Source: Acidobacteriota bacterium (GTDB lineage Bacteria > Acidobacteriota > Thermoanaerobaculia > Multivoradales > JAGPDF01). Taken from it: a stretch of 64,000 bases of DNA. Numbering within the stretch: the stretch's first letter is position 1; every line of letters starts with the position of its first letter. Under the pieces are notes generated by a model. That model did not search any database, was not told the origin of the DNA, and saw only the letters and a list, made by a program, of their open reading frames with translations. A program made the translations under genes and the position numbers. This document shows, piece after piece, positions 13,754 to 61,174 of the stretch. The DNA is taken from contig BTUO01000007.1 in the NCBI GenBank assembly GCA_045862895.1, positions 67,615-131,614 of the forward strand. The letters run 5' to 3'.

Positions 13754-13918
13754 CGAACGCCTCCTCGGGGTCGACCGGCGGCCAGTCGTGAGGGGTCGTG
13801 GTTCCGGCGCGATCGGATGTCCACCGCTCGAGCGCGGGGGGTCGTTCGCTGCCCGGATTCGACAGCAGCATGTTAGCACCGCCGCGAGCCGCCGGCTGTG
13901 ACCCCGGTCAGGTCCGGC

Positions 13919-30636: not shown

Positions 30637-30821
30637 GCGCTGATCCGTTGGCCCATCTCCTCGTGACTGATCGTGCGACCGGCGTCGGAATCAGCGAGGC
30701 CACGCTCGATCATCCGAGCGAACGCCAGCTCTCGAAGGAGTTCGTCGTATGAGCTGTCATCGGGCTGCTTCTCGAGAAGCCGGAGCATCTCCTCCTTGGC
30801 AGTGCGCTTGCTCTGTGTCAT
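30624..30821 (-). CDS. type II antitoxin (putative addiction-module component, TIGR02574-like)
   Basis: The ATG at 30821 has a GGAGG 7 nt upstream. MTQSKRTAKEEMLRLLEKQPDDSSYDELLRELAFARMIERGLADSDAGRTISHEEMGQRISAWEK is 65 aa. It sits upstream of and overlaps the ParE-like gene. Confidence 0.75.
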   Translation of the reverse strand: MTQSKRTAKEEMLRLLEKQPDDSSYDELLRELAFARMIERGLADSDAGRTISHEEMGQRISAWEK

Positions 30822-30920
30822 CTCCGGGCCTCCCACTCGAACCCAGACAATTGTAGCGGACTCGCTCGACCCCGCCCGGCATGCGCGCCGCGCGCCCGAA
30901 GACCTCTGGAACGGAAGGTT

Positions 30921-41000: not shown

Positions 41001-42801
41001 AACCCGAGACGAAGGTCTGCTCGATCCGCTCGCTCCCCCACGGGCCGGCGATCGTCGTCTCGAAGTCGTGGGGCACCGCGAGCGGCATCGCCTGGCCGAC
41101 CGCGACCTCGCGCCCTTCGATCCGAAGCACGGGCCGCACGTCGACGAGGTAGGCCGGCACCCGCCCGAGCCCGCCGAACAGCATCACGGTCCGGTGATCG
41201 TCGACGCTGGCCGGAATGTAGGAGATCGTCGTCCGCCGCCCGAGCAGGCGGGCGACCGGCAGCTCGTGATCGAGCACGACCGGCTCGCCCGGAGCCGTCC
41301 CCGCGAAGGCGCGGAAGCGGATCGTCTGGCGGTCGGCCGGAGCGAGCGCGCTCGACTCCGCGGTCACCGCCACGGTGCGCACCGGCAGCGAGCTCGGCAG
41401 GTGGCTCAGCCGCTCCGGGACGACGGAACGCGCTCCCAGCTGATCCACGTAGCTCTCGTCCGGCCGGTTCTCGACGAGCCAGGCCTCGACCTGGCGCCGC
41501 ACCCGCGAGAGCGGTTCCTCGTCCTGGGGCGCGGCGAGGTACGCCGCGAGCTCGTCGTCCACCGCGAGGCCCATCGACTCGAGCACCCGCGTCGACGGGG
41601 TCGTGACGTGCCCTTCGAGCGCCGGAGCCAGCGGGATCCAGGTCCGGCCCGAGAAGTCGACCACCGAGCCACGGTAGTTCGAGTACGGGGCCCAGGCCGA
41701 GATCCAGGTGTGCTCGAGCTCGAACGCCGCGACGGCGCCGCCGCGGACGATCGGCCGAGCCGCCACACCCGAGCGGGCGAGCAGCGCGGCGATGGCCGTC
41801 GGAGACTCCGTGCCGAACTCGGCGGCGAGGTCGGCGATCGGCTGCTCGATCGCCCCCCGGACGTAGCGGCACGCCATGCCGCTCGCGCGCAGGAGCGCCA
41901 CCAGCAGGCTCGCCTGGTCGACGTCGTTGCCCCGCCGCTGGCGCAGCGTCTCCTCGGCGCCCTTGAGCGAACCGGCGTAGCGCTCGGTGTCAATCTCGTT
42001 GCGCACGAACTCGAAGAGGCGGACGTAGTCGTAGCCGAGCGCCGCGGCCTGCGCGACGATCTCGGCGGTGAGCGGAGCCTCCGGGGTCGACGCCAGGTCG
42101 GCCGCCGTCGGCAGGGGTGGGACCAGCAACCGGTACGACGGCTCGATGGCCGGCGCCACGACCGGTGTGCGCGCCGCGAGCTCCTGAGGGCGGTAGGGCA
42201 GCGCGAGAGCGCGCAGCAGGGGCTCGGAATCCGCCTCCCCCCCTTCACCGAGCGTGGCGAGGCCGCGAAAGACGGCGCCGGGGACGGCAACGGCGGCGCG
42301 GGCGCGCCCTGCCGGCGGTTCGGCGAGGTCGCCGAGCCAGCGCTCGAGCCCGGCGCGCAAGGGGGCGAAGCGCTCCTCGTAGCGGCGCTCCGCGGCGTCG
42401 AGACGCGCGACGACTGTGCCGCCGATGCCGGCTTCGGCCAGACGCCGCCGGTTGTCCGCGAAACGCTCCCGCGCGAGCAGGTCGAAGGCGAGCACTTCGG
42501 TCGCGACGGCCGCGGCGTCGCCGGCGTCGAGCGACGATCGGCTCGACAGACGCTCCAGCGAGATCACCGCCCGCTCGAGCCCCGCGGCCGTCTCGCTGCG
42601 ATCGCGGGCGGCCGCGCGCACCGGCCGGGGACGAGCGGCGAGCTCCCGGGCGAGGGCGCGAACCTCCTCCCCGCGCGCGAAGCCGGCGAGGAACCGCTCC
42701 TCGCGCGGGTCGTGGCCCTGCGCCGCGGCGGCGCTCGCGAGCGCCGTCGATCCCGCGATCGACAGCAGCGCCCACGCCAACCCCCTCCCCGTCACTCGCA
42801 C
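32053..42801 (-). CDS. RHS/YD-repeat polymorphic toxin (3582 aa) with N-terminal signal peptide, transglutaminase-like and Ig-like regions, YD repeats, RHS core ending DPLGLY, and a variable C-terminal toxin domain of about 430 aa
   Basis: A GTG start at 42801 has a GAGGAGGGAG just upstream. MRVTGRGLAWALLSIAGSTALASAAAAQG is a signal peptide. Many YD repeats are present (YDxxGNL, YDALNR, YDANGNR). The core reads FGFTGHQRDEETGLYYFGARFYDPELGRFLNEDPFGG ... DPLGLY. The C-terminal domain has unknown function and is encoded in a lower-GC segment. Confidence 0.9.
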   Translation of the reverse strand: MRVTGRGLAWALLSIAGSTALASAAAAQGHDPREERFLAGFARGEEVRALARELAARPRPVRAAARDRSETAAGLERAVISLERLSSRSSLDAGDAAAVATEVLAFDLLARERFADNRRRLAEAGIGGTVVARLDAAERRYEERFAPLRAGLERWLGDLAEPPAGRARAAVAVPGAVFRGLATLGEGGEADSEPLLRALALPYRPQELAARTPVVAPAIEPSYRLLVPPLPTAADLASTPEAPLTAEIVAQAAALGYDYVRLFEFVRNEIDTERYAGSLKGAEETLRQRRGNDVDQASLLVALLRASGMACRYVRGAIEQPIADLAAEFGTESPTAIAALLARSGVAARPIVRGGAVAAFELEHTWISAWAPYSNYRGSVVDFSGRTWIPLAPALEGHVTTPSTRVLESMGLAVDDELAAYLAAPQDEEPLSRVRRQVEAWLVENRPDESYVDQLGARSVVPERLSHLPSSLPVRTVAVTAESSALAPADRQTIRFRAFAGTAPGEPVVLDHELPVARLLGRRTTISYIPASVDDHRTVMLFGGLGRVPAYLVDVRPVLRIEGREVAVGQAMPLAVPHDFETTIAGPWGSERIEQTFVSGSYQALAVGGPRADGRADDGGDPSDAEQLAARLLSSLAYRFAERWDVAERELAGLLDVALATPLPSVALVANAVEVTHLAGIPEGLEWQGVTLDAALRATDPVARGGDAEEAIDYQRFAALQGSALERFVFEDEFLVGAISADHGLGLARAAGIPVETIDAGNVAAMLALLDHPPAVEAEIERWALAGATIEVPRTAVARDAWSGSVFRVDDPATGAAGYYLSGGLAGGATTAAPEDWVLQFLAEALAAPYDGEPNPDPMSAATIVKITATDGQYGTVGTLLPVELAVEVRDAAGRPVRGAAVTFTTGRDDGRFEPLEGEPGDEVTVLTDRTGVAAVPFRLGTDTSLEPVYLLRDDGDAYSTRALAHVIDAVVASSSGAIPVDAPIEAFGFPGPPATLRRTDSDETYFVVDRAASWVDTMVFVVEDSHGNPISNIDVSASFSDMFEDESCTNAPSSPQPGAVFDSRECSWFPGDPLGCEVAEYTGATSSYGIPIGVVTGSAFAASYTYSTWAGGFDPQVFEYGVLYTQSSTTGECSPWRRVDVASWWLINELGENIQATSPGSTFGRAIPMTVAAFVQADGNFPMPGGGGETYPGQSGDGQWAVIEAALELEVSNGGSATPPILVEGPSYETQLATGPAVGFHSLEVEVTTDFFGMPSGPETFGPYLVNGVWALDAALDPIADLPIVLTDDGRLAEELVLSYRILPEDYRARTAEIVLLEDGDEIGVAAASPRSGAGQATVQRGYEFDQARTYSAQLVLNRGTEAEMRSSELLLPFSQRLFSELDRQLFLGQDIDLVNERVCEQPAKFHYRTGYEANVSLVFRGIYRELGGAPQYDGSEITLLAGGVEPAGSHDLDILTSDLLPGEYEWELRGVSTADGHVEIERGFARFELVTRDSLAVGHALVGGVDAFDGHLVLSRQDVSIPARGIDLEFSRTFSSSDVYDPGSLGPGWSHNWQSFVTVLPCGDIMVVGGEGSGMRFADDGEGGLRPLRGYHGTLRANWSTLTFDFFAKGGRRYHYVYDYDTRWRLAFVEDPNGNRVTLVYEPSSGGESPFRLAAVVDDAGRQLTFAYQRRSFAQWVGEVLVSVSGPDGLRVTFTYDPVWGTLIRAERETHSDGSPSRVESYRWELRNPFWDDRKVLVEARDEISAAETLFEYLPVTVGAAGVLVQRISIESITKPRGGVKQFAFDLAGLEARAEETETVVTDERGKEWRYVQNRYGATIRQIDPLDQLTVTEWTPDDVLVTARTDANGVRTEYDYDEHGNLLSESVEVIDVDNGAHTYVESRTYVPPSEFELPIKDRLATRTDRNGATTTFEYDARGNLLAESVVVTDVDAGARTLTIGHDYFPNGDRASTTDHRGSTTRFRYDATGNLTEVHDPLNHKTVSAFDARGRMVSRTDARFHATTFEYDVLDRRVRTVHPLVEGEATPAEERVVYDDASRTRTDVDARNRSTVTTLDLEGNVASIVNAEQGTKILDYDLAGNKTLESTWFDQQTPRHDTIFDYDDAGRLERRDEPHGRRTVYQYDAVGNLRFETVSDTTDPAFEPRLTEKVYDALNREIAVIRDPSGLAQRIEKLLDGNGNVVALRDPLDRETLVDYDELDRRIRETRPEWRAGQAAVTEWLFVDPDRREEERRYNQRELPNGTFESNDQVRKVLYDERGLVRRREDAEGKAWTYEYDAVGNLVREVDRRGVLVTSDYDERNRRIRRTEVLNKFTVPARDVVTEWSHDGNGNVVEERLPNGNVVTHVYDGLNRRTESSDELGALSTADYDARGNVIGETDASGNELTREYDALDRLVAEHLPEDRDFAFTYDVAGNRLTHENARGFTTEYEYDALNRLTRTIDPAPFGYDTILSWDLAGNKKTEQNRRDFVTSYDYDELDRLVRIDDPAAVGTFQSFTYDAIGNRLSATDRRGIRTSFAWDRENRLLSTTRSGITLESNQYDGNGNRIFTTDARGHTTGFEYDERNLLKSENRPLAAITRFALDDLGDRIRRIDPEGRVTEWSYDLRRRQLREKRLMDPGNSSDDEEQASCYDGNGNRIARFEPEAFSALAGAEPCESPFPGAFRYGFDAANRLTSVRDPLGHLTSYGYDPSGNRTSQTDDNSHTTSFEYDALERLTRKIYPQVAGVAAEESYGYDANGNRTGLTDPLGQAFSWQYDALDRETLATYPPPTPPRGDDLQSIATAYDGNGNVETVTETYSGPSGTRTTSQTWDAFDRLRTKTDPEGELLTYGYDAAGNRNRLTDPDGRTTLYQHDALNRLQSVLPPGTGATLYEYLGNSLLKRITYPNGATAAYGYDRANRVTSIENRQHTALVSSYVYAYDRNGNRTSQEETNGGAPETTTYVYDDADRLTEVHYPDETVVYTLDGVGNRQTEVTTDTGTGTITSNKTYGYNERDFLLSVTDSVEPANNTNYAYDVNGNQIEKTAVQSGVISSFIYDVRDQLVEVSTSTGLLETYGYSYDGLRTRKSGPGGLFRFVYDERSLLLQTDLAGITIAKYEWGPDRLLSLDHAVEGRQFYLFDGLGSVASLSKPDGTLQARFRWDAWGNLRSQAGDSFNLFGFTGHQRDEETGLYYFGARFYDPELGRFLNEDPFGGVLETPPSLHRFLYANASPVRFTDPLGLYSWEELGRDLQFVQDVAVGTLVGMYDPRNAGKNLQRGVGGAVGTAKMLGGTAVGLLSLAADNASGMALPGAFERNAGRAEALADFISHPVDTIVDAHAVAIQKIEAHEAKGEYFQSGMVGGEIGSADALAVAGGIEGAGALARGAGRLTTRALSVDFAGIEAGFSEAVAPLGGAPRVPFGTTTTSVPVRVQSAVVGESSTSGGAAVSEVSTTQSAPALGSSAERSTPPIRPSWQAAQAGPADDLAQFGFESEPSFFGGSRVSYGTRGSVRPDYASEQMMLSVDVKNYDLTTAKGRWRLVRDVVGQSESRARNLPEGMQQGVIIDIRGQQVNDVLLQRMLDRIVQKSDGLIHADNVVVQRADP

Positions 42802-45800
42802 GCTCCCTCCTCGATGCAGTTCGGTACCGGATCCGGCGGCGGCAGGCAGCCCGCGAACGGCGCGTGGTCGAGCTGACCGTCGAGCTTCAGCGATTCCGCG
42901 ACGACCGTGCCCTCGACGACCGCTTCGACGAAGCCGAGGACGGCGTAAGGCGCCAGGACGCTGCCGCGGAAGACCAGCTCTTCGAAGACGACGTCCTCGG
43001 CCTCAGCGAAGTTAAAGAGGACGTGGTCGGATCGCACGTTCTCGAGCGCGATCGGAAAACTGGCGGCGATGATCTGCGTTCCGGCCACGTTGACCAGTGC
43101 GGTCGAGCCCGCCGGCGCCCGCAGGATCAGGCTGGTGGCGGCCGCAAGCTGCGCCGCGTCGATCTCGAAGACGTTCAGTGTCGGATCGACGCCGACCAGC
43201 CGCAGGCCACCGCGCGGCGTCAACGTCGTCGATCCGTTCGCGGCGAGCGTGGCGAGCGACCCGGAGAGCGCGACGAGCGCCGCGCGCTCGGCCTCGAAGT
43301 CGATCGGAGCCCCCGAACGCAGAACGCCGTCGGGGATCGCGACGCCTTCGACCGCGGCCCAGTCGCCGTAGATCGCGTCGCCATGGATTACCCGCCCGCC
43401 GGCGAACGACAGGCCGTCGCCGGCGACCAGCGCGGCGCCGTCGCGGCCGGGAAGGCTCTCGCCGACGCTGACCGCCTCGAGATCGACGTCGCCACCCGCC
43501 GCCAGCCGGCCACCGACGTCGCCGTGGCTCTGGAGCAGGTCGCCCCACAGGAACAGGTTGAAGTCGTTCGCCAGGCCGAGCGGCTCGGTCGCACACCCGG
43601 CGTCGTCGATCCGCGCGACGGCCTCGGCGCCGACGACGACCTCCTCGGAGCCCGCGGCGAGGTCGAGGAAGAAGGTCTCGGGCGACTCCAGCTGCTTGTC
43701 GCCGAGGACCTCGACGGCGACTTGCGCCGAGGTCGCGGTCGCCGGCACTTCGAGCGTCCCGCTCGCCGCCTCGTAGTCGGCCCCCGCCTCGGCCTCGCCA
43801 TCGCGAGTCACGAACTCGACCGCGGTGGTCCGGTCCGTCGGGCAGGCCAGCAGCACCGGGAACTCCGCCCACGCGGTCTCGCCCGGCGCCGGCTCGGTCA
43901 CGCCGACGCCACCGACGGAGATCGCCGCTGCACGCAGCGACACCAGCGAGAGCGCGTCGAAGTAGGCATCGAGGTCGGGTTCGGTGAAACGCTCGGCGAG
44001 CAGTCGCACGCGGATGCGGCGGGTCCCCGCCGGAGCCGCGCGCTCGTCCTCGATCACGCTCCAGGTTGCCGGACTGGCGAGCGCTCCCGAATCGAACAGA
44101 TCGAGCACCGTGCCGGGCTCGTCGCGGTACTCCACGACGATCCGGGCGAGGTCGGGGATCGCCTCGTCGGCGCTGTAAACACGGCCCGAGAACCGGAACG
44201 CCTGCGCGCCCTCGTCGATCGCCGAGGCGTACGGCGCGAGATCGATCTCCTGGACCAGCTCCGCCGTGGCGACCGCGCCCGGGAAGAAGCTCGCCTCGCC
44301 CTCGACCGGAACCGGCTCGAGCCAGCGCGGCCGCCAGAGCCCGCCGACGACCTCGATCCAGCCGGCCAGCTCGCCGTCGATCAGCGGAGACTCGGCGCCG
44401 GGATTGACGAGGAGCTCCGGCCCCGGACAGAGCTCGTCGTCGACGATCGTCACCAGCCCGGTCGCGTCGGCGAGGGTGCCGTAGCTCGGCGTTCCGAGCT
44501 CGAGCGTGAAGGTCTGGTCCGGCTCGAGCAAGACGTCGCCCAGCACCGGGACGGCGACCGTGGCGCTCACCTCGCCCGGCGCGAAGCTCACGCTTTCGGC
44601 GACGGCCGTGTAGTCGAGCCCCGCGGTCGCGCTGCCGTCGGCCGTCGCGACATCGAGCTCGACCGCCTCGAGTCCCGGGGTCGACAGCGTCAGCGTCACG
44701 ACGGCGTCCTGGCTGCCGGCGTCGCCCTCGGTGATCGTCACGTCGTCGACCGCGACCGCCGGCAGGTCGTCGTCGAGGATCGTACCGACCGCCGTCGCCT
44801 GCCCGATCGTCGCCCCCTGCGGCGAACCGATCTCCAGCGTCAGCGTCTCGTCGATCTCGTCGAGGAGGTCTCCGATGACCGAGACTGGAATCGCGCCGTT
44901 GATCGCGCCGGGATCGAACGTCAGGATACCGGCGGCTCCGACGAAGTCGCTGCCATCGGTCGCCGTTCCGTCGACGGTCTGGTAGGTCACGCTCACCGGG
45001 CGCGTGACCGCCTGCGAGAGCGTGACCACGAACGACAGCTCGCCGCCCGTGGCGTCGCCCTCGACGACCTCGGCCGCCGTCACCGAGGCCTCCGGCAGGA
45101 GCGCCTCGATCGTGAAGTGGAGCTCGCTGGTGGCGCGGTTGCCGGCGGCGTCCTCTGCCAGGACCCGGAGCGTATGCGCACCCTCCTGGTCGACCGGTGT
45201 GCCGGCGGGCAGCGAGGCGCCGTCGAGCGTGACGACGAACCAGCCCGGGTGCAGATCTTCGACCGTGATCACGGGCAGGACCGGTTCCGGATAGATGCCG
45301 CCCTCCTCGACGCCATCGACGACGATGACCGGAGGTGTCAAGTCGACCTCGAAGGGATGCTCGGCGGTCAGCGCTTCGTTGTCCCAGGCATCGCGGGCCC
45401 GCAGCCGGACCGAGTGGCTCCCTTCCGCCATCGGCGCGAGCGCGGCGCCCCAGAGGCCGAGCGTCGCCTCCTCGAGCGCGAGCGGCTGCCAGTCGCCGCC
45501 GTCGACCGCGACGGCCACCGACACCACGGTCGAGTGCTGGTCGACCGCCGTCGCCTGCGCCCGCGCCTGCGCGCCGACCAGGCCCGAGTGGGCGGGGACG
45601 ATCAGGGTCGCCAGCGGCGGCGTCCGGTCGGCCGTGGCGAATCCCTCGGCGTCCAGGACGAGCCACGCGGGCGCACCGCCATCGACCCAGTACGCTTCCA
45701 GCACCGCCAGGTACGGCGCCAGGCCGAGCTCGTCGGTGGCGAAGAGGGCGCTGCCGGCGTGCGTCGCGCCGGCCGGCAGATCGATCACGCTCTCCGAGCG

Positions 45801-54800: not shown

Positions 54801-57800
54801 GTCACGGCCGTCCCACTCGATCGACTCCTCCTCCGGCTGTGAGTGGCTCCGTGCGAACGTGCGCACCAGCACGTCGCGGTCATCGTAGATCCGAGTGTCG
54901 ACGTGGAGCGGCTCGAGCGCCCGATAGTGGATCGTCGTCGTCTCGAGGATGCCGTCGCCGTTGGGCGAGAAGACCGTAGGCGAGACCCAGAAGTCGGTCA
55001 CCGAGGGCGTGTCGGTCGCGAAGACGTGCTGCCGGTCGGTGCGGCGGTTGCCGGCGCGGTCCTCGACCGACAGGCGCACGTCGTAGGCGCCGGGCGCGGG
55101 CGGCACCCAGGTCAGGAAGGCCGCGTCGAAGACCTCCGTGGTCGAGGCGGGAGCGACCGGCGTCCAGCTCCCCGGCTCGGTCGCCGGGGCGTACTCGATC
55201 CGGTAGCGGAGGAAGTTGCGGTCGGCGGCGCTGCCCTCGAGCAGGAATCCGGGTCCGTTGGGCGAGCGCCGAGCCCGAAGCTCGGTGCCAAGGTTCAGCA
55301 GCGATCGGAACGCGAAGTAGTCGAGGCCATCCTCCGGGTTCGTGCACGGGTCGACCTCGGGATCGGCCGGTCCCCACGATTCGAAGAAGAGCGCTCGGCC
55401 GTCGGCGCTGAACGTCGGAACCTCGAACACCTCGTAGCCGGGAAACAGCGACGTCCGCCGCGCGTCCTCGTCGAGCTCGACACCGACGAGCGACTCCCCG
55501 TACCAGAACCGGTCGGTGGAGCCCCAGAGGAGCGCGCGGTCGAACGGCGCCCAGATCGGCTCGTGTCCGACCTGGAGCGGCGGCGCGTCGCCCTCTCCCA
55601 TCCCGGCGAGCGATCCGCCGCCACCTCCCCCCGACGACGGTTCGGTCCACGCCACGTGGCGGGCCTCGCCGCTCGCCAGATCGACCACCACGAGCTCGCC
55701 GATCCGGAGGTCTTCGGGTAGCGACCACTCGATCGCCAGCGCGACCTCGCGCGGCGAAGTCCGGGCGCGGGACAACTGCCTGGAATTGACGACGGCACTT
55801 GGCTCGGGCGGTTCGGTCTCGACCAGGTAGTTTCCGATCGGCTCGCCGTCGCGGCCGAAGACGTGCAGGCGGCCGGGCTCGGGATCGAGGACGACGATCC
55901 GCGTCCCGTCGAAGCTCCAGGCCGCGTTCCACCAATCATTGCCGGTGCCGCTCTCCAGAGCGACCAGCAGGCGGCTCGATTCTTCTCCGAGGTCGACGAG
56001 CCAGGCTTCGGCGCCCGCCGACGCACCATCGACGAAGAGAACCAGCCGCGATCGGTCCGGCGAGAAGATGTAGGGCTCGTATTCGTAGGCAAACCAGAGC
56101 GAGCTCGCATCCGGGAAGATCGAGTGCGCGAGCGAGGGGTCTGCGATCGGGACGGTCACCAGCGTGCCGTCCTCGCCCTCGACGAGCAGTCGGTCGCTGT
56201 TGCCATGAAATCCGATCGGGAACGGCGCCGTCGAGGTCGACTGGGGGAGCCGTGCGAGTTGGGTCCCGGCGGCGTCCGAGAACCAGGTCTCCCGCCGAGA
56301 CGTGCAGGGCGAGCCGCGCCAGGTGGCGAAGGCGATCCGCGAGCCGTCGGGCGAAACGCGCAGCGAGGTCTCGATCAAGTCACGCGGGCACGCCGGCAGC
56401 TGCTGGCCGAGTTGCGCTTCGGTGACGACCTGGGTGATCGCGCTCTCCTCGGTGGCGACGCGATAGATCCCGGAGGGATAGGTCGGGTTCCCGTCGACAA
56501 CGACGAACGCGGTCCTGGCGTCGCTCGTCGGCCGAGCGTCGCGGATCGGCGGCAGCTCGCAGGTCGCGTTCTCGACCCACTCGTACGGGGTGCCCAAGGC
56601 GTGGAAGAGCGAAGTCCGATCGGTATCGAGCGTGGCGCGCGCCGCACCGAGCCGCTCGCCCGAGCCCGCGTCGACGACCGTCAGGCGGTACTCCCCGTCG
56701 CGGGCGACGTCTCCGTCCGCGTCGGTGCCATCCCACTCGAAGCTGCCTTCGCCGCCGCTCCACGCGGGATTCGTCTCGCGCCGGACCAGGCGATCGCGAA
56801 CGTCGCGGATTTCGACGGCGAGCTCTACGGGAGCGCCCACCCGGAACGCGAAGGTGGTCGAGTCGAGGACTCCGTCGCCGTTGGGCGAGAAGAAGGGAGC
56901 GCTGACGTAGGAGTCGTCGTCCTGCACCGTGACCTGGATGCCGGCCGAGTTGTTGGCCTCGTCGCCCTCGATCAGCACCTCGTCGGCGTCGACGACGACG
57001 AAGATCGCGGCCTGGCCCGTCGGCTGATCGAAGGTCCACCCGAGAGTCGCGATGCCGCTGGCCTGGCCGGAGACCGGGTCCAGCGTCGAGTCGGCGAGCA
57101 GGACGCCACCAGCGCCCGGATCGCCGAGGAAGGCCCGGACCGCGACCGGAGCCGCGTCCTGCTCGCCGAGGTTTGCGACCTGTACGCTCAAGGTCACCGG
57201 TTCGCCCGGCACCGGGAAGGCCGGATCGAGCGAGAGGCTTCCCGCGCTGATCGCCAGATCCGGAAGGGAATGGACTTCGACGATCTGGAACGTCGAGTTG
57301 TCGGACTCCGTGTGCTCCGCGACCAGCCCCTCGGGATCGACCATCGCGTGGATCACACGATCGCCGGCGTCCGGCACCTCGGTCCAGACCGCCGCGACCT
57401 CTGTCGATCCGCCCGCGACGATCGGCGGCAGCGTCGCCGCAGCGATCTCGATGCCCGACGACGGTGGACCATCGTAGAAGGCCACCCGCGTCTCGCCGGT
57501 CGTGGCGCCGCCGTTGTTGCGCACCTCGATCGAGAGCTCGAGCGGCGAGCCCTCGCGTCCCGGCAGCGGCGAAACCGCGAAGTCTCCCGAAGCCACGGCG
57601 AGGTTGGGCACCGCCAGCGGCGTCGACGGGAAGGCCAGCGACGCCGAGTTGTTGGTCTCGTCGCCCTCGGGAACAAGGTCGTCCGGATCGAGCGTCGCGA
57701 CGAACTGCAGGTCTCCCTCGAGGTCGACGCGCCAGACGACGGTGCGCTCCGCGCTCTGCCCGGGCTCGATCTGGAGGATCACCTCCGGCAGCTCGCGGGT

Positions 57801-60566
57801 CGTCGTCCCGTCGGTCACCGCGAAGGCGGCGGTGAAGGAGCCGCCACCGACCGTGCCCCGGTTGCGCATCCCGACCTGGAACCGGACATCGGCGCCGGGA
57901 TGGGCCGGGCCGTCGAGCAGCGTGAGGTCGGCTCCCGTCACCTCGAGATCGATCGCCGGCGAGGTGGTCACCGTCGCGCTCGCCTGGTTGTTGTCCTCGT
58001 CGGCTTCGACCACCACCGCGTCCGGATCGAGAACCAGCGTGAAGGCGAAGGAGCCGGGCTCGTCCAGCGTGTCGAAGAAGCTCACCGGCGCGGACGCGCG
58101 CGCCGGCAGAGCGATCGTCTGTTCGCCGAGCACCTCGCCGCCGGCGCCCTCGCCGCGATGGAGCCGGATCAACGCTTCGGGGACGTCGGTCGAGCCCAGG
58201 TTGCGGACCGTCGCGACGATCGCGACCTCGACCGGAAGCACCGCCGGGTGCGGCGGCAGGAAGGAGATCTCGTCCGCTCGCACCGAGAGGTCCGCCTCCA
58301 CCGGCGCGGGATCGATCTCGACCGGCAGCGTCGCGCGGTTGTTGCTCTCGCTCGCCTCCTCGATCGCTTCGTCCGCATCCAGGATCACGTGAACCACGTG
58401 CGTTCCCGGGTCGAGCCCGGTGGTATCCCATGCGATCGCCAGCGTCGTCGAAGCGAGGGTCGCGAGCTCGGAGAGCTCGACGTCGGGGCCGATCGGTTGC
58501 CCGCCGGAGTCCGGGTCCCCGTCGAAGAGCCGCAGCACCGACGCGGGCGCGGCGAGCGCGCCCGCGTTGCGGACCGGGATCGTCAGCTGCACGAGCTCGC
58601 CGACGACCGGCGCCGCGGGCTCGGCGGCGAGCGCCCCGGCGAACGCCAGGTCCGGGAAGCGGGCCTGACTCAGCGTGGCGGCGACTCGTGCGGTCGTGTA
58701 GACGCTGCCCTCCCAGCTTCCCTCGATCGTCTGCCGTCCGTCGAGATAGGCGACCGCGGCGGCCAGGTCGACCTCGCCGGCCTCGTCGAGAGCCCGGATC
58801 GTGTCGACGACCTGTGCCGTGTCGTGCGCCGTGCTCGGGCTGTCGCCGAAGCCGCCATCCGGGTTCTGACGTCCGGCGATCCAGGAGAGCGCGTCCGGAC
58901 CCGGCGCCGAAACGCGGTCGAGCGCGACCAGGGCGGCGAGCGCCGCGGTCGTCGGGGCGATGCGGCTCGCACCGTCCGCGGCCGCCCCCCAGCCGCCGTC
59001 CGGGTTCTGGGCGTCGACGAGCCAGTTGCCCGCGCGGACCAGGGCAGGATGAGAGCTCGCGAGGCCGCTCGAACGGAGCGCTTCGATCGCCATCGCCGTG
59101 TCGATCGGATCACTCCCGTAGCGCGCCCCCGCACCCCAGCCGCCATCGGAGTTCTGTCGCGCCAGCAGGGCGCTGGTCAGCGCGGAGTTCGACGTGTTCG
59201 GCTGGAGGCGCCCGAGTGCAGCGAGCGTCCGCGCTGCGTAGTCGCTGCTCGGCGGCACCTCGAGCTCGAGCCAGTCCGCGGCCTCTGCGCCCCGCACGAA
59301 CAGCGAGTCGAGCTCGGTCAGGACGCTCGCCGCGACCGCCGTATCGCGCGTGCTCGTCTCGGGCTTGTCTTGCCAGGAGCCGTCGGACCCCTGTCGCGAG
59401 CGCAGCCAGGCGAGCGCGTCCGGGAGGCTCGCGGATCCGCCTCGAGGATCTCCCGGGTCGACGGGCCCGGGTCCCCCTCCCCCCGAACCTCCCGGCGGCG
59501 CGAGCGTCACTTCGAGGCTCGCGCGACCGCCCGTCAGGATCGCAAAGCGGATCTCGAGCGCGCGCCGGAACCGCTCGAGCGCCAGCAGCTCCGCGTCGCT
59601 CGGCGTCGCGCCCGGGCGCACCAGGTAGAGCACCGCGGCGCGGAATCGATCCGGACTCTCCCCGGCGGCGGGAACGCGCGGTCCCTCGGCCGCGACGATG
59701 TCGTCGATCGTCACCGTCACCGCGCCACCCTGAATGGTCTCCCCTGGCTGGCCACGCCGCTGCGGTTCGATCGTGGGGTTGTCGATCAGCAGCAGGGGTG
59801 GGATCTCGTCGGGTCCTGCGAACCCGGCGAGGTAGAGGTCGAGCGGCCCCCAGACCTTGTCGACGGCGAGCGAGGTGAAGCTGCCGTTGCCATCGTCGCG
59901 CCAGTCGTTGCCGTAGAGCACCGACCCTTGCGAGTCGTACAGATAGCTCCAGTGGCTCTCCCCGGTCGTCAACGCGCCCGAAAGTGAGCCGTCCGGGAGG
60001 CGAAACCGGAGTCGTGTCCCCCAGGTGTGCAGGATCTCGTGGGTCGCCGCGACCAGCAGGAGCTCGAAGCCCGGATCCAGCGGATCGAGCGCGTAGCGTG
60101 ACAGGGCAGCCAGATCGACGTAGTTGCGCAACCGGCCGGCGCTGCCGAAATCGTCGCTGAGGTCGTAGGCCGGAAGGTTGATCCCCTGAACGTCGTTGCG
60201 AACCAACCAGGCCATCGCGGTCGCCCCGTCGGTGTCGAACTCGAAGTCGGTCGCGACCAGGAGGAAGTCGTAGTCGTCGCCGTGCTCCTCGTAGAAGGCC
60301 CGCGCGACGTCCATCCGGGCACCGAAGTTGGGCTCTCCGTCGCCGAACGAACGGTCGTAGTCGCCGAGCACCTCGAACACCGAAACGCCGCCGCGATCCT
60401 CGATCGGAACGACGAGCGCCTCCGGTGCCTGCGGCGCTCGCGAGGGAGAACGCTGCCCATCGGCGATCACGACGCAAGATGCCTCGGCGGCGACCGGATC
60501 CGCGCCGGCACCGAACGCGGCGACCAGCGCAGCGACGAGCGCGACCGAGACGCGCCGGAAGTTCAT
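42792..60566 (-). CDS. giant (5924 aa) secreted multidomain surface/adhesin-like protein
   Basis: MNFRRVSVALVAALVAAFGAGADPVAAEA is a signal peptide. An N-terminal HExxH motif (ATHEILHTWG, with an E about 27 aa later) follows. Next come prenyltransferase / alpha-macroglobulin-like toroid repeats (SDGSWQD, QNSDGGWG, QNPDGGWG, QNPDGGFG). The body carries multiple CARDB-like modules, FlgD-Ig-like FSPNGDG modules, PD40/TolB-like SPDGxxxA repeats, FN3-like modules (DVIGYxVDRDG), an F5/8-discoidin-like segment, and three Calx-beta-like modules. The C-terminal NDFNLFLWGDL...GRLAAGGDVDL domain is choice-of-anchor-A-like. The ORF is continuous. Confidence 0.85.
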   Translation of the reverse strand: MNFRRVSVALVAALVAAFGAGADPVAAEASCVVIADGQRSPSRAPQAPEALVVPIEDRGGVSVFEVLGDYDRSFGDGEPNFGARMDVARAFYEEHGDDYDFLLVATDFEFDTDGATAMAWLVRNDVQGINLPAYDLSDDFGSAGRLRNYVDLAALSRYALDPLDPGFELLLVAATHEILHTWGTRLRFRLPDGSLSGALTTGESHWSYLYDSQGSVLYGNDWRDDGNGSFTSLAVDKVWGPLDLYLAGFAGPDEIPPLLLIDNPTIEPQRRGQPGETIQGGAVTVTIDDIVAAEGPRVPAAGESPDRFRAAVLYLVRPGATPSDAELLALERFRRALEIRFAILTGGRASLEVTLAPPGGSGGGGPGPVDPGDPRGGSASLPDALAWLRSRQGSDGSWQDKPETSTRDTAVAASVLTELDSLFVRGAEAADWLELEVPPSSDYAARTLAALGRLQPNTSNSALTSALLARQNSDGGWGAGARYGSDPIDTAMAIEALRSSGLASSHPALVRAGNWLVDAQNPDGGWGAAADGASRIAPTTAALAALVALDRVSAPGPDALSWIAGRQNPDGGFGDSPSTAHDTAQVVDTIRALDEAGEVDLAAAVAYLDGRQTIEGSWEGSVYTTARVAATLSQARFPDLAFAGALAAEPAAPVVGELVQLTIPVRNAGALAAPASVLRLFDGDPDSGGQPIGPDVELSELATLASTTLAIAWDTTGLDPGTHVVHVILDADEAIEEASESNNRATLPVEIDPAPVEADLSVRADEISFLPPHPAVLPVEVAIVATVRNLGSTDVPEALIRLHRGEGAGGEVLGEQTIALPARASAPVSFFDTLDEPGSFAFTLVLDPDAVVVEADEDNNQASATVTTSPAIDLEVTGADLTLLDGPAHPGADVRFQVGMRNRGTVGGGSFTAAFAVTDGTTTRELPEVILQIEPGQSAERTVVWRVDLEGDLQFVATLDPDDLVPEGDETNNSASLAFPSTPLAVPNLAVASGDFAVSPLPGREGSPLELSIEVRNNGGATTGETRVAFYDGPPSSGIEIAAATLPPIVAGGSTEVAAVWTEVPDAGDRVIHAMVDPEGLVAEHTESDNSTFQIVEVHSLPDLAISAGSLSLDPAFPVPGEPVTLSVQVANLGEQDAAPVAVRAFLGDPGAGGVLLADSTLDPVSGQASGIATLGWTFDQPTGQAAIFVVVDADEVLIEGDEANNSAGIQVTVQDDDSYVSAPFFSPNGDGVLDSTTFAFRVGAPVELAVEIRDVRDRLVRRETNPAWSGGEGSFEWDGTDADGDVARDGEYRLTVVDAGSGERLGAARATLDTDRTSLFHALGTPYEWVENATCELPPIRDARPTSDARTAFVVVDGNPTYPSGIYRVATEESAITQVVTEAQLGQQLPACPRDLIETSLRVSPDGSRIAFATWRGSPCTSRRETWFSDAAGTQLARLPQSTSTAPFPIGFHGNSDRLLVEGEDGTLVTVPIADPSLAHSIFPDASSLWFAYEYEPYIFSPDRSRLVLFVDGASAGAEAWLVDLGEESSRLLVALESGTGNDWWNAAWSFDGTRIVVLDPEPGRLHVFGRDGEPIGNYLVETEPPEPSAVVNSRQLSRARTSPREVALAIEWSLPEDLRIGELVVVDLASGEARHVAWTEPSSGGGGGGSLAGMGEGDAPPLQVGHEPIWAPFDRALLWGSTDRFWYGESLVGVELDEDARRTSLFPGYEVFEVPTFSADGRALFFESWGPADPEVDPCTNPEDGLDYFAFRSLLNLGTELRARRSPNGPGFLLEGSAADRNFLRYRIEYAPATEPGSWTPVAPASTTEVFDAAFLTWVPPAPGAYDVRLSVEDRAGNRRTDRQHVFATDTPSVTDFWVSPTVFSPNGDGILETTTIHYRALEPLHVDTRIYDDRDVLVRTFARSHSQPEEESIEWDGRDESGVHVRDGVYRIELQDLEQFVEVDRTAPEVSLSWSNGGLVCLDPGRLPNDRHAAWSFGLLAGALDPPHDPPGVELEVGVGANPATWLDALLSPGEVPAPECAPNCPGISVSDYVNRRYRARATDAAGNERVELLELAEEELAIGAVKLQLQDPVSGLPTGWELVGCTAAPVEVLSEGFLRFEVGETARAVLAQVYVQYRAPGAPVWSETANAGIFEVGALDVAGAVPDRYFDVAWDPEPILGAGNVELRLRAIDSQGAEHLSGTVSVQVRRRISTRFRVADVAPLGDEPPEPGDLLEQALAAGAIEPGLGLFVIVRLESATPPESVAAYLESDDDPRYSEWRRFDPVFVLPAGDVREYLFVIEDWQLCSGYRAYGTARLGGGLELVTAVETTETSCFAASLQLEPERAEVCGEPAPGRIRARAGSRLHSGSPPPSLQLLTLARRLPDGSEDLLGSFNQPVPGELYDFEIAMAELPEGEHRFVARVTSVDGDTMESERLGVVDRTPPVLEITNPLEGQQLCSSEIEIRPGVFRRGFEIVGTVDEAWIEGSGGYSPRLSFDTDPEPRSWSNREGMDFLSTESPRPFRSVVDPGVAGEVTVRAAVWDRGGNLICGQRRFVADAAVGGVAGVSDDLISPDGDGVLDETVGTFVATQPVTLDVDVHPAVFDTTLGRWRVVGPRVRRLVDDIPVSDTRQFVWRGEDDALALVPDYDYGLVVTAVDGCGNEWSRVLHVRVDATPPVAQIVSPAPGDPLPMLVPIAGIATDLNFLEWRLEFGVGADPTTWIEVATDDLQKHPPSEPFGTWNTYGLSGEHTLRLRATDRGGLRNEHRVTYDLTGPERLFSDLTALPPLFSPNGDERRESTTARVIVELESRLTVEIRTETDTLVRRLALAQLAAPGASTFLWDGADTGANAAPDGRYRVRVLAELEANPAITQDEEILVELDRTPPAVTVERPADGYVTGEGQVVGSIADERLVSWSVALASDPVDPVWTDLASGSAAQSSAPLGSLEGLAEGDYALRVRAADAGEIQVEQIVPFVVDNTPPVVDLLAPANGDLLGAAGGAVAIRGAVAEEHLAEWRVELGAGTAPTTWIPLVSGADLPAGETLLDWLPTGVADGLYTLRLIAEDRAGQSAVDSVQLTIDNLGPQVAIDSPAAGAWVREPAPILGTAADAHLESYTLAVAPAGTEAFTPIGGGASSIVGGQLHLWAALPSDGDYRLRLAAIDLAGNAASTEVALSVDTHPPGPTTLTATLENGSDARLEWSPSPEPDVIGYVVDRDGARLTPAPVPAPTLLDAALAEGSHAYVVRAVDAAGWEGAPSNVATVVVDVTPPTVAISAPSDATTVSGVVVISGTAYSVDDFREYRLTVRAEPGGEPALLRRSPVPVVAAAIHEWSTAGLPEGASYRLRLEGEDLAGNVAVSEVVVTVDNVAPAPPTGLTATVVGGTGDVQAAWNANAEADLLGYLLYRDGVLVNAPGGVEGDLRRYALSETSYLDAGRPDGTFSYLVAAIDQAGNVSGPSAPAEVTIDRHPPRAEIVVPVDGARFEEPLFVRAESDDEDVASVVFEWRVAGSGTWAAFGSTDVQPPWETTFDPLAFEPDLEHGDFELRAVATDDNGATDPAAPAILVTYADLTPPSAPLDLVAAVDGGDVTLDWSASPESDVIGYHVDRAGADGTSERLTATPVATPGYLDEALADGPYEYAVIAVDDSDNESEPSAPAPARVATPRLTQPYTPTRQPVAALSGVSAYLGTAAGEIASGTGTAPIPPVGTDSDGGFVWSDLPLADGVNTLTVRVTDPAGNRTRDAAVDVTVGAPPTAPASVVASPGAGANEVVVTWDANPEPDVVGYRPWRDGSSVLAPATIADATASASTESFPPGSAEMAIDGDGATYWAPWVDESEVLAGQSLEVTWPETRFVARVEIDWLATSELQFAPTDFDLEAEFGGVWVPLATWRGNTDPQQHWLASDLYPTDRLRVVLWASPLDGAHTQPVRLAELRAVHQPILAATTLTETVPDGVHEYRVSALTTLGFESALSEPATIGVGDTTPPEPVVLAAEVTGSDVALSWTASPSPDVERYEVWRDGTNIGERTDLGNRTWLDAGLPNGTYLYVVVAVDGAGHSSPPSNAVEALVAVELPAPPTDLFVTPVAGGGALDLAWQPPSGPAPSGYRVHRAEVAGGPYSPVADAPAPAHRDGGLVDGSTYYYVVSALDAAGNESSASNEASGTPTDELPPPAPVLTFPAFAGAPRITLRSPIPVAGFAAEGAEIELRRNAVYAGEAVAASEFAVESLADVVWTAARLSPDGRWLWVEDDFGAAYVRRLDGPEVVDLPEGNGRVRWSADGGSAYVVDGAAVRRFDVADEALEVVAALDEARIAAPSPSGDRLAVVALRAGQSGVWVLDLDSGDWTLTVATATLDDLGEALEWSPAGTHLAWLRTTGATEIEVAEIETGLVVATLPASDGALSWSPDGAALLWTSSASGSDQVWRHDLASATSEAVTAEPGEHAMPRWAPHAASFACVRDGGEVLEVDLEDGAARTWPVELFAGIEQLEWVAGGTALVVSDLTPSRIEPPGRFEVPGVALAGGDNRLVAIARDLAGNASVPSAETLVHLRGEALPNLAVLGPELVVLPAVPLAGGMARVTVVVRNLGGAAAPASDLTAAVSGPQGFVAVLAEGLAVPPLPPGGSAVFGFDLSLPSVAGSYLAAAAVDAAGVVVEANEDDNAAERAFLVAADGTPLLELATDRTTYGEDDTVELTAALFNAGSTFDGWIEIAIEDANGFELAELEPEAVIGLEHGATLEVERTWSTEGVFAGLYQARARLFDLDGAEIAQTTAPFEIGEVFYLSVIAASERPWYTIGESAPVSGRIRYEAGNALLSGAIARLAVIDPDGVAVAQWQQPLGDLLPGAVASVVRTFATAGAEPGVHRVRVEVERGGSVLAVGEVPFELRTAPAALLGMLALSNPQPAIGEPLIAVYSVTNAGGADAFAVPIRTRLIDPATGIELARSESVIDLPAGATHAGSALFATDELGLAPYLAVLEAYWVDGGAPAWLVLDAEGFATADRTPPLATLIVPAHSGLVGAQARAQATAVDQHSTVVSVAVAVDGGDWQPLALEEATLGLWGAALAPMAEGSHSVRLRARDAWDNEALTAEHPFEVDLTPPVIVVDGVEEGGIYPEPVLPVITVEDLHPGWFVVTLDGASLPAGTPVDQEGAHTLRVLAEDAAGNRATSELHFTIEALLPEASVTAAEVVEGDATGGELSFVVTLSQAVTRPVSVTYQTVDGTATDGSDFVGAAGILTFDPGAINGAIPVSVIGDLLDEIDETLTLEIGSPQGATIGQATAVGTILDDDLPAVAVDDVTITEGDAGSQDAVVTLTLSTPGLEAVELDVATADGSATAGLDYTAVAESVSFAPGEVSATVAVPVLGDVLLEPDQTFTLELGTPSYGTLADATGLVTIVDDELCPGPELLVNPGAESPLIDGELAGWIEVVGGLWRPRWLEPVPVEGEASFFPGAVATAELVQEIDLAPYASAIDEGAQAFRFSGRVYSADEAIPDLARIVVEYRDEPGTVLDLFDSGALASPATWSVIEDERAAPAGTRRIRVRLLAERFTEPDLDAYFDALSLVSLRAAAISVGGVGVTEPAPGETAWAEFPVLLACPTDRTTAVEFVTRDGEAEAGADYEAASGTLEVPATATSAQVAVEVLGDKQLESPETFFLDLAAGSEEVVVGAEAVARIDDAGCATEPLGLANDFNLFLWGDLLQSHGDVGGRLAAGGDVDLEAVSVGESLPGRDGAALVAGDGLSFAGGRVIHGDAIYGDWAAVEGVAIPDGVLRSGAPIDFEAERAALVALSGSLATLAANGSTTLTPRGGLRLVGVDPTLNVFEIDAAQLAAATSLILRAPAGSTALVNVAGTQIIAASFPIALENVRSDHVLFNFAEAEDVVFEELVFRGSVLAPYAVLGFVEAVVEGTVVAESLKLDGQLDHAPFAGCLPPPDPVPNCIEEGACE

Positions 60567-61174
60567 CTCGGCTTCCCGTCAGGGGCTGGGCGGCGCACCG
60601 TGCGGGCGCCTTTCGGCGCGGGCGCTTCGGTCTGTACCGGAAGGGCTCCTCGCGCGGCCGTCAGACTCTCGTCGCGGGTGCGGAGGACGCGCAGCCTGGG
60701 CTCGCCGGCTCGCTCCGCGCGCAGCAACCAGACTTCGCGGATCTCCTCGAGACCTCGGGCACCTTGCGAGGGACGGAGCAGCACGCGGTCCGAGCGCAGA
60801 CCGACGACTTCGAGGGCCTCGATCTGGTCGCCCGGTCGCACCACTCGGAGGTCGCCGCCGGTGCGTCCGACGACGGCCGCTCCGGTCGCCGGATCGCAGG
60901 CGACCAGATACCAGGACTGGAGCGCCTCGAGTGGAGCGGATCCGGAAGAGAGGAGGTCGGGCGCGGTCGCCCCGGCCGGCGGTTCGCCCGGATCGCGAGA
61001 CGTGCGCTCCGATTCCTCAGTTGCCGGCGGCGCGGGAGCGGCGCCCGGAGCATCGGCGATCGCCGCCAGCGGCGACGCCGTGATCACCAGGCCGACGGCC
61101 ACCCGCGCCGCGCCGTAGCGCAGCGTCCCGGACGACCCTCGCCGCTTCGAGACTCTCCCCGTCCTTGCCACCAT
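60563..61174 (-). CDS. hypothetical secreted protein (204 aa), translationally coupled to the giant gene
   Basis: The ATG at 61174 gives MVARTGRVSKRRGSSGTLRYGAARVAVGLVITASPLAAIADA, a signal-like N-terminus. The C-terminal half (VVRPGDQIEALEVVGLRSDRVLLRPSQGARGLEEIREVWLLRA) is vaguely GspC/PilP/SAF-like. Its stop overlaps the giant-gene ATG (ATGA at 60563..60566). The upstream Arg-rich part of track ORF 60563..61588 was rejected. Confidence 0.5.
   Translation of the reverse strand: MVARTGRVSKRRGSSGTLRYGAARVAVGLVITASPLAAIADAPGAAPAPPATEESERTSRDPGEPPAGATAPDLLSSGSAPLEALQSWYLVACDPATGAAVVGRTGGDLRVVRPGDQIEALEVVGLRSDRVLLRPSQGARGLEEIREVWLLRAERAGEPRLRVLRTRDESLTAARGALPVQTEAPAPKGARTVRRPAPDGKPR

Follow-up and report, generated by a model that had tools for sequence, protein, structure and literature searches.

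Giant bacterial proteins are mostly repeat arrays. The giant fibrillar and repeats-in-toxin (RTX) adhesins LapA, SiiE and MpIBP of Marinomonas primoryensis are very large and acidic, with immunoglobulin (Ig)-like stalks and C-terminal ligand-binding modules. Here we analyze a stretch of 64,000 nucleotides from the assembly of an Acidobacteriota bacterium (contig BTUO01000007.1; hereafter the window), in which one gene encodes a protein of 5,924 residues (the giant) and is overlapped at its end by the gene for a predicted polymorphic Rhs toxin (the partner), itself overlapped by an immunity gene. An earlier note on the giant had missed both of these overlapping genes, although nothing else in the locus says as much about its function.

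Polymorphic toxins with an inactive transglutaminase domain were defined as a class in section 19 of Zhang et al. (2012, Biol Direct 7:18, PMC3482391), where the inactive domain was predicted to be a peptide-binding anchor for the toxin at the surface. The class bears on the question of how Rhs/YD toxins without a type VI secretion system (T6SS) or Tc reach the Gram-negative surface and, subsequently, their targets.

Results

The giant gene is real and intact

The giant is encoded by a single open reading frame (ORF), and its 619 kDa product has a pI of 4.18 and six lysines in total. The G+C content of the window, 63–76%, is high enough by itself to generate many overlapping frames of more than 1,000 codons, and the 17.8-kb ORF singled out by the earlier note might accordingly be an artefact, either a chance frame in DNA of 72% GC or a mis-assembled or collapsed repeat array. 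Its composition argues otherwise: in every 900-nt block the G+C content at third codon positions (GC3) is 0.85–0.92 and that at second positions (GC2) is about 0.5, which indicates a single coding frame from end to end. A domain scan with Pfam and NCBIfam on ten overlapping pieces, with motifs counted separately, gave significant matches along the full length. The strongest DNA repeats inside the gene are at most 78% identical over 42–64 nt, a ceiling that also holds for repeat family D1 of the CARDB stretch, spaced at ~348 nt, and the four tandem arrays are short and low-scoring (39–59 nt, 64–81% matches), none of them near-identical. Dozens of separately assembled homologues are colinear with the giant, with length differences below ~60 aa across 5,250 aa; BLASTP aligned P0165 with the giant in one high-scoring segment pair (HSP; query residues 56–5314 to subject residues 53–5369) and P0084 over query residues 47–5301 to subject residues 33–5307. 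With no near-identical repeats and with colinear proteins from independent assemblies, repeat collapse is unlikely. The giant gene is real and intact, the repeat mis-assembly that the earlier note had entertained was not borne out, and an artefact of either kind is practically refuted.

Giants of this kind form a colinear family

With residues 1–380 of the giant as a first query we obtained 25 homologues, and in no case does a Pfam domain cover that region. The profile of an alignment of 22 diverse members (A1) was then searched against 1.84 billion cluster representatives (50% identity clusters), of which 6,169 matched at E<=1e-3 and 2,698 at E<=1e-30. The best 150 of these matches and the first 25 homologues, with two shared, make up the 173 family sequences considered here. 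In 63 of them, all among the best 150, the HExxH domain that the profile describes (hereafter the head) stands at the extreme N-terminus of a giant of 4,000–7,900 aa. Shorter proteins with an N-terminal head account for another 64, and in 45 the head is C-terminal (<1,000 to 2,900 aa, 36 of them at least 1,000 aa). The proteins with a C-terminal head (P0026–P0061 and others), which have a Glucodextran_B-type Ig domain and a further conserved region of ~200 aa, form a second major architecture.

At least 63 giants are colinear with the 5,924-residue protein over aa ~50–5100 at 30–46% identity, some in a single BLASTP HSP. Scanning one genome per GTDB species with the conserved fn3/Ig stretch (aa 3160–3500) as query, we found 15 species with a clear giant. 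Acidobacteriota, Thermoanaerobaculia among them, are carriers (54% identity at best), as are Lysobacterales, Nitrospirota and Thermodesulfovibrio, Desulfobulbaceae and Myxococcus sp. RHSTA-1-4. Four are cultured, namely the Myxococcus strain and, in Lysobacterales, Tahibacter harae, Tahibacter sp. UC22_41 and Pseudomarimonas arenosa. Family members bear database names such as 'hypothetical', 'CARDB domain-containing' or 'prenyltransferase/squalene oxidase repeat-containing protein', and a literature search found no paper on the giant family. The earlier note had taken the domain combination to be rare. With 63 colinear giants among the best 150 representatives, and 15 species carrying one, it is instead an inherited architecture.

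Conservation is uneven along the chain. In a MAFFT alignment of 57 giants the head is the most conserved segment, with a mean top-residue frequency of 0.55–0.72 over aa 51–350 (0.60–0.72 over aa 51–300) as against 0.3–0.5 in most of the stalk, and variable islands lie at aa 650–750, 1350–1750 and 1950–2500. The conserved colinear core stops at aa ~5100–5160, and the last ~800 aa differ between lineages. None of the 63 giants aligns past aa ~5700, that is, with the choice-of-anchor-A end of our protein, which is common only to two Acidobacteriota loci, L002 (50% identity) and L006 (42%); when JGI metagenomes were searched with the C-terminal 524 aa, a single, distant match was returned. Elsewhere in the family the C-terminus is a helical 'LDELLKIWExKWY' tail, an 'LVATKFNLL...PPGS' tail, or a tail that is hydrophobic and basic, in the manner of a transmembrane anchor or PEP-CTERM signal. 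The family thus combines a head and stalk that are conserved with a tip that can be exchanged.

The giant is paired with a predicted Rhs toxin

The partner begins with a signal peptide and continues through a transglutaminase-like domain, a Big_1 domain (a weak match, E 7e-4, under the Pfam cut-off), DUF6531/FN-plug (aa 1507–1579), 17 RHS repeats (RHS_repeat E 1e-129, 17 stretches) and Rhs_assc_core (aa ~3141–3220, E 6e-22) to a C-terminal region of ~360 aa. Across 31 partner homologues the catalytic cysteine of the transglutaminase is replaced by a conserved aspartate (GND[VA]DQA) and the His and Asp positions are variable; the domain is predicted to be inactive. No Pfam toxin model matches the partner's C-terminus, the end of which reads VDVKNY...IIDIRG. 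The gene that follows encodes Imm70, an immunity protein paired with Tox-REase-10, whose signature is ExKNY...DxRG (PMC3482391). Judged by its sequence, the partner belongs to the polymorphic Rhs toxins with an inactive transglutaminase. Over positions 30000–34000 of the window, which take in the Rhs toxin end, Imm70 and an orphan cassette, the GC content falls from ~0.72 to 0.63, consistent with horizontally exchanged toxin/immunity modules. The orphan cassette holds an Rhs fragment that runs in frame into an antitoxin-like tail, with a ParE toxin gene directly after it (Table 1), and a type II toxin-antitoxin pair thus seems to have landed in, or fused with, this cassette downstream of Imm70.

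To survey the pairing, we searched the 15 species loci with the first 1,500 residues of the partner (tblastn). Ten of them (L002, L006, L008, L009 and L011–L016) have a partner homologue downstream of the giant, which in nine of the ten overlaps the giant or lies within ~260 nt of it; at L002 the giant's stop and the partner's start overlap in the same arrangement as here. From the partner side, P0188 is preceded by a 5,842-aa CARDB/FlgD gene, and P0177 has a split giant upstream and Rhs fragments downstream. Tight adjacency is found in Acidobacteriota, Pseudomonadota and Myxococcota, plus one Desulfobulbaceae metagenome-assembled genome (MAG).

In Pseudomarimonas arenosa (L013, NZ_JACYTR010000032.1, 158–21421) giant and partner lie in one uninterrupted frame of at least 7,088 codons. 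We rejected a Rosetta-stone fusion because the junction reads ...PEIPATSFAWLIMLAGLVAASVALRARRRG, a PEP-CTERM-like tail, with the partner's signal peptide following at once, and this looks like two proteins read through in frame. In Geotalea uraniireducens Rf4 (L082, CP000698.1, 56502–81754) a 1,750-aa inactive-transglutaminase protein without RHS is separated by insertion sequence elements from a 1,720-aa FlgD_ig and F5/8C gene, which is cut by the end of the locus. This gene resembles part of a giant, and transposition may have broken up the locus.

Lysine is extremely depleted in the giant (0.10%, 6/5,924) and in the first 1,500 residues of the partner (0.20%). The remainder of the partner, its Rhs and toxin part, has 1.6%, and other proteins of the window have 0.4–4%. 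Homologous giants range from 0.43% to 4.75%, so the depletion is partly an effect of high GC, yet it is unusually strong, and its being common to the giant and the N-terminal part of the partner is consistent with a shared compartment.

The head is a family of its own with a nearly invariant HExxH...HW signature

The N-terminal HExxH domain that the earlier note had recognized is confirmed, its HEILH being the sole HExxH in the giant. Alignment A1 shows no variation at E177, H180, H205 and W206, while H176 is kept in at least 90% of its members; Y245 is invariant as well. Over A1 and the 57 giants, H176, E177, H180, H205 and W206 reach a conservation of 93% or more. HExxH-x(15-45)-HW is present in 166 of the 173 family members (HExxH-x24-HW in the giant), and [HQ]ExxH-x15-45-HW in 169. 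AlphaFold2 gave a confident model of the head from the 22-sequence alignment, with a predicted local distance difference test score (pLDDT) of 82.8 and a predicted template modeling score (pTM) of 0.81; residues 1–43 of the giant have a pLDDT below 50. In the model, HExxH closes an 18-residue helix that one helix and three strands precede. This order of secondary structure would be compatible with a zincin core, a resemblance that is our own reading of the model and not a computed match.

No described family covers the head. It has no Pfam match at E<=10 and no NCBIfam or PHROGs match at E<=1. In the Protein Data Bank (PDB), neither its sequence nor its profile found a match at E<=10, and a Foldseek comparison of the model with PDB and BFVD gave nothing at E<1e-3. 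For the 22 aligned homologues, too, Pfam, NCBIfam and PHROGs gave no match on this region (E up to 0.1–10), and the precomputed Pfam annotation of 45 further family matches contains no peptidase family. With no family match, it is the motif that argues for catalysis. Of the two checks that the earlier note had proposed for the head, the profile scan returned no peptidase family, yet no other family either, and HExxH...H is the most conserved feature of the family; structure prediction gave a confident model, and Foldseek found no relative of it.

Gluzincins have HExxH in a helix and a Glu on the following helix as third zinc ligand, and metzincins have HExxHxxGxxH and a conserved Met-turn. The earlier note had called the head gluzincin-like on account of GESHW. 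E203 of that motif is not conserved, and no Glu downstream of HExxH is conserved among the 22 diverse members or the 57 giants; without such a Glu the head is not a gluzincin, and the invariant candidate for a third ligand is His205. We likewise rejected a metzincin assignment. HEILHTWGTRL has no His at +10, the metzincin-type Gly is not conserved in the family (consensus HRWxA), and the Met of LYLMG is Ala in the giant; with neither HExxHxxGxxH nor an invariant Met-turn, the head is not a metzincin. It resembles zincins in the HExxH that ends a long helix after a helix and three strands, and in its invariant Glu, both His, third downstream His and Tyr. It differs from them in lacking the gluzincin Glu, the metzincin motif and the Met-turn, and neither sequence searches nor Foldseek found a similarity to any solved peptidase.

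In other proteins the head is combined with NIDO, Ig, PKD, RCC1, LRR/FG-GAP, dockerin and fn3 modules, and the stand-alone head-domain proteins have unrelated gene neighborhoods, sometimes near S41, S9 or trypsin-type peptidase genes. It occurs, in other words, alone and in many secreted architectures, in the manner of mobile catalytic domains. We conclude that the head is a mobile and extracytoplasmic domain, so far undescribed, and most probably a zinc hydrolase; that it is a peptidase, as the earlier note's term 'protease-bearing' implies, is plausible but unproven.

The toroid is probably a binding module

Behind the head lies an alpha/alpha toroid, for which the earlier note had counted four repeats; the repeats are there, and their number is five (Q..[DE]G[GS][WF], aa 392–618). 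A model of aa 41–660 shows two well-folded domains (pLDDT 85). The linker between them is of low confidence and the pTM is 0.56, which lends no support to a fixed packing of head and toroid, and we rejected the idea of one rigid unit. The pair of head and toroid recurs in short proteins such as P0002, P0067, P0208 and P0209. In Foldseek searches the toroid matched squalene-hopene-cyclase-like single-domain proteins (8pak/8paj, E 1e-10), drimenyl diphosphate synthase, prenyltransferase beta subunits and, more weakly, the thioester-containing domain (TED) of complement C3 (9qk2_G, E 1.6e-5). A class II terpene cyclase was rejected in spite of these fold matches, as the toroid lacks DxDD: the position reads DPID (aa 486–489), of which D489 alone is conserved in the family.

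Alpha2-macroglobulin (A2M) and other thioester proteins have a CGEQ thioester in the TED together with macroglobulin (MG) domains and a bait region. The earlier note had likened the toroid to this group as well as to terpenoid cyclases, and one may ask whether the giant is an A2M-like protease trap for envelope defense, in which beta-sandwich modules and a TED-like toroid capture proteases in the periplasm. The C3 match points that way, as do the PF07678 TED_complement matches to the toroid of some homologues and the abundance of beta-sandwich modules and of propellers like that of TolB, both common in proteins of the periplasm. The likeness is one of fold and does not extend to function. Cysteine is absent between aa 32 and 1335 of the giant, and hence from the toroid, which makes a thioester impossible; A2M, MG and bait-region models of Pfam and NCBIfam found no match in the giant; and terpene cyclases outscore TEDs as matches to the toroid. 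Moreover, the giant is 3.5 times as long as a bacterial A2M and has an HExxH domain in front, and the choice-of-anchor-A ends or PEP-CTERM/transmembrane-like C-terminal anchors of its relatives point to the surface. We regard a protease trap as very unlikely. As both DxDD and the thioester are missing, neither catalytic reading fits the toroid, which probably serves in binding and not in catalysis. Its fold and QxxDGGWG repeats are those of class II terpene cyclases, prenyltransferase beta subunits and TEDs. It differs from this group in being extracytoplasmic and fused to an HExxH domain, in having DPID in place of DxDD and in lacking Cys.

A heterogeneous stalk leads to a lineage-variable tip

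Nearly every call in the domain inventory of the earlier note was upheld by Pfam and NCBIfam (Table 1). One correction concerns CARDB, of which it had counted eight or more: CARDB modules are present, and by Pfam and by the E.NN motif (aa 740, 857, 970, 1087 and 1203 in the tandem array) they number six. Unassigned beta-sandwich modules at aa 4650–5100 may be what the higher count had taken in. The several FlgD-Ig modules with FSPNGDG come to four FlgD_ig (FSPNGD; aa 1226, 1866, 2556 and 2773), PD40/TolB-like blades are found at aa ~1398 (weak) and aa 4342–4435, and the FN3-like modules proved to be fn3 mixed with Big_13, Big_3_3 and Big_7, joined by VDxTPP-type linkers. The discoidin-like segment corresponds to F5_F8_type_C. 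About 2,000 residues of the giant have no model match even at E<=1; on aa 1300–1900, 1940–2620, 4650–5110 and 5270–5570, Pfam at that threshold gave no more than weak PD40 and Ig matches. Pfam and NCBIfam models for RTX repeats, a type I secretion (T1SS) signal or a two-partner secretion domain found no match in the giant, which has a Sec signal instead.

The tip contains the three Calx-beta modules that had been noted, the first two at aa ~5173–5375 and the third at aa 5567–5651, with an unassigned segment of ~180 aa between, and ends in a choice-of-anchor-A domain that lies far above the model cut-offs (TIGR04215 175.5 bits, cut-off 29; pAdhesive_15 161.5 bits, cut-off 23.8). Choice-of-anchor A owes its name to the C-terminal sorting signal that follows it, be it PEP-CTERM, LPXTG or the C-terminal domain of type IX secretion. 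Here, as the earlier note had said, no sorting signal follows; 18 residues remain (…DHAPFAGCLPPPDPVPNCIEEGACE), without a hydrophobic or basic tail.

The giant as a possible scaffold for the toxin

Since members of the giant family usually stand directly in front of an Rhs toxin gene, the giant is probably a surface scaffold for a toxin weapon. The fuller reading, which we hold tentatively, is that it presents or processes the partner, with the Rhs toxin docked on it. This reading starts from what we observe, namely a family with its colinearity and conservation, the synteny, the broken triad of the partner and the immunity gene. Giant and partner would both be exported by Sec. The giant would form a long, acidic, probably calcium-binding stalk, bounded by the enzyme-like head and, opposite it, an adhesive tip that can be exchanged, and the partner would dock on it through its pseudo-transglutaminase and Ig region. 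Reach, and adhesion to the target through the lectin-like, Calx-beta and choice-of-anchor-A modules, would be supplied by the giant, and the complex, if placed at the surface, would present the Rhs cocoon to neighboring cells. The head, if it binds zinc and is a hydrolase, could have the toxin, the giant's own chain or the target envelope as its substrate. Delivery of the toxin would amount to antagonism between bacteria, from which Imm70 would protect the producer and its siblings.

Several observations weigh against it. No partner lies within 2.5–5 kb of the giant at L003, L004, L005, L007 and possibly L010 (4–5 of the 15 giants); Nitrospirota giants and one gammaproteobacterial giant lack one within that distance. 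Distant partner homologues of the Geobacter type are solitary and have DUF900 in place of RHS, and the C-terminal type of a giant is uncorrelated with the presence of a partner. QExxH replaces HExxH in 3 of the 173 family members, and no enzyme family matches the head by sequence or Foldseek. Among the genes of the window, moreover, we identified none for an outer-membrane export route, an anchor or a secretion system.

The giant might instead be a stand-alone surface adhesin and protease, which attaches to surfaces, polymers or prey and digests with its HExxH domain, next to an Rhs gene that shares only its island or promoter. About one-third of giants have no partner, adhesins are typically built with modules such as F5/8C, Calx-beta and the ice-binding-like choice-of-anchor A, the head is found in small secreted proteins with no toxin nearby and sometimes by genes of S41, S9 or trypsin-type peptidases, and the carriers include predatory or surface-associated groups (Myxococcus, Lysobacterales), all of which would suit such a role. 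It accounts less well for the start/stop overlap here and at L002 and the tight adjacency in three phyla and the Desulfobulbaceae MAG. The conserved N-terminal 1,500 aa of the partner, moreover, are a module for binding, not catalysis, and for this module no anchor other than the giant is obvious (PMC3482391), and the family core is colinear and non-repetitive, unlike repeat-stalk adhesins. We therefore consider a stand-alone adhesin somewhat unlikely, if a serious alternative to the scaffold.

The scaffold reading can be carried further. Giants and inactive-transglutaminase Rhs proteins might constitute a new two-component means of contact-dependent toxin display and delivery in diderms, dependent on Sec and independent of type V secretion, T6SS and Tc, in which the toxin is captured through the pseudo-transglutaminase and the head, as a new metallopeptidase family, releases or activates it. 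In this full form the proposal is speculative, and we think it unlikely. As for the 'protease-bearing, cell-surface scaffold' of the earlier note, the analysis supports its general outline, a scaffold of many domains that is exported by Sec, resembles adhesins and begins with an HExxH head, the protease part being the less certain.

Surrounding genes

The other genes of the window encode ELWxxDGT-repeat proteins, a TonB-dependent receptor, a kinase, oxidoreductases, halogenase-like enzymes and an AMP-binding enzyme. Halogenase-like and AMP-binding genes flank the giant/Rhs locus on both sides, a hint that it is inserted into, or adjoins, a small-molecule biosynthesis cluster. The four ELWxxDGT-repeat paralogues are secreted proteins of 780–983 aa with 25–47% mutual identity and no Pfam match; amid their genes, positions 8118..10927 hold no convincing coding frame. 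Immediately upstream of the giant is a possible 203-aa ORF, its TGA stop sharing the sequence ATGA with the start codon of the giant. Neither a Pfam or other family match nor a counterpart upstream of homologous giants was found for it, and we rejected it as a conserved upstream gene. No tRNA or Rfam match was found in the window, including the ~900-nt gap between the giant and the AMP-binding gene.

Table 1. Features of the window. Positions count from the first letter of the 64,000-nt stretch; aa, residues of the encoded protein.
Feature	Position	Strand	Basis or remark
Giant gene	42792..60566	-	ATG ORF, 5,924 codons, no internal stop
Giant: Sec-type signal peptide, aa 1 to ~27	60486..60566	-	MNFRRVSVALVAALVAAFGAGADPVAA, then E; read from sequence, cleavage site inferred
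Giant: HExxH...HW head domain, aa ~44–361	59484..60437	-	family conservation, AlphaFold2 model
Giant: HEILH motif, aa 176–180	60027..60041	-	C-terminal end of predicted helix aa 165–182
Giant: His205-Trp206, candidate third metal ligand	59949..59954	-	invariant in alignment
Giant: alpha/alpha toroid, aa ~380–640	58647..59429	-	Pfam SQHop_cyclase_C E 3e-19
Giant: five tandem CARDB, aa ~641–1215	56922..58646	-	Pfam CARDB E 5e-60, 5 stretches
Giant: FlgD-Ig x4, weak PD40, ~1,400 residues without family match, aa 1216–2870	51957..56921	-	Pfam/NCBIfam
Giant: Ig-like (Big_13/Big_3_3/Big_7) and fn3 array, aa 2871–4150	48117..51956	-	Pfam
Giant: F5_F8_type_C lectin-like domain, aa 3788–3883	48918..49205	-	Pfam E 7e-7
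Giant: TolB/PD40-like beta-propeller, aa ~4151–4535	46962..48116	-	PD40 E 4e-8, TIGR02800 E 1.5e-13
Giant: sixth CARDB (aa ~4536–4650), then unassigned beta-sandwich/Ig modules to aa ~5160	45087..46961	-	Pfam
Giant: lineage-variable C-terminal module, Calx-beta x3 and choice-of-anchor-A	42849..45086	-	Pfam/NCBIfam
Giant: choice-of-anchor A, aa 5662–5906	42849..43583	-	TIGR04215 E 1.6e-51; pAdhesive_15 E 5e-47
Partner gene, 3,582 aa	32053..42801	-	shares last 10 nt of giant
Partner: transglutaminase-like domain, aa 245–384	41650..42069	-	Transglut_core E 2e-10
Imm70 immunity gene, 136 aa	31646..32056	-	Pfam E 1.9e-42, GC3 0.61; 4-nt overlap with partner stop
Orphan Rhs fragment	30624..31334	-	runs in frame into antitoxin-like tail
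ParE toxin gene	30340..30636	-	Pfam E 8e-15
Possible 203-aa ORF, hydrophobic N-terminus	60563..61174	-	GC3 0.79; gene status uncertain
AMP-binding enzyme gene	61476..62876		beside giant/Rhs locus
FAD-dependent halogenase-like genes	28702..30267 and 62936..64000+		giant/Rhs locus between them
ELWxxDGT-repeat paralogues x4	1..2343, 2377..5151, 5169..8114, 10928..13879	-	TIGR04534 E 6e-111 (2377..5151)

Discussion

Giants of this family are already present, unnamed, in databases, and the partner falls in a described toxin class. What appears to be new is the recognition of a giant family with a colinear core of ~5,100 aa, a head domain family without Pfam, NCBIfam or PDB coverage, and the conserved coupling of the giants to inactive-transglutaminase Rhs toxins. 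A non-repetitive core of ~5,100 residues that is colinear across at least five phyla makes for an unusual giant protein. Counting 6,169 cluster representatives and, by Foldseek, without a relative among PDB structures, the head family is a good target for structural and enzymatic work. A translationally coupled giant upstream of the toxin gene is a concrete, testable candidate for the anchor postulated in 2012 (PMC3482391), and the cultured Tahibacter, Pseudomarimonas and Myxococcus strains make the idea amenable to experiment.

Among known giant proteins, LapA, SiiE and MpIBP share with ours the acidic character, Calx-beta modules, a long Ig-like stalk and, near the C-terminus, an ice-binding-like beta-solenoid. 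Unlike them, our giant has a Sec signal, with no C-terminal T1SS signal and no RTX repeats detected; its stalk is a heterogeneous colinear core in place of a near-identical tandem array; and it carries an N-terminal HExxH domain and a toroid.

The partner compares closely with the toxins of PMC3482391 in its order of signal peptide, broken-triad transglutaminase, bacterial Ig domain, RHS repeats, Rhs core, variable toxin and immunity gene, in its association with Imm70, and in a toxin end, VDVKNY...IIDIRG, that parallels the ExKNY...DxRG of Tox-REase-10. It departs from them in overlapping an upstream giant gene, a pairing that recurs across phyla; that paper does not mention such a giant. With the bacterial teneurin-like YD-shell toxins (bioRxiv 10.1101/2025.11.11.687626) the partner shares DUF6531/FN-plug, the YD shell and the variable toxin enclosed in it, as well as the immunity gene that comes next. 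Searched by term, the text of that preprint mentions neither a transglutaminase nor an upstream giant, and it is in these two features that the locus described here stands apart from the YD-shell toxins.

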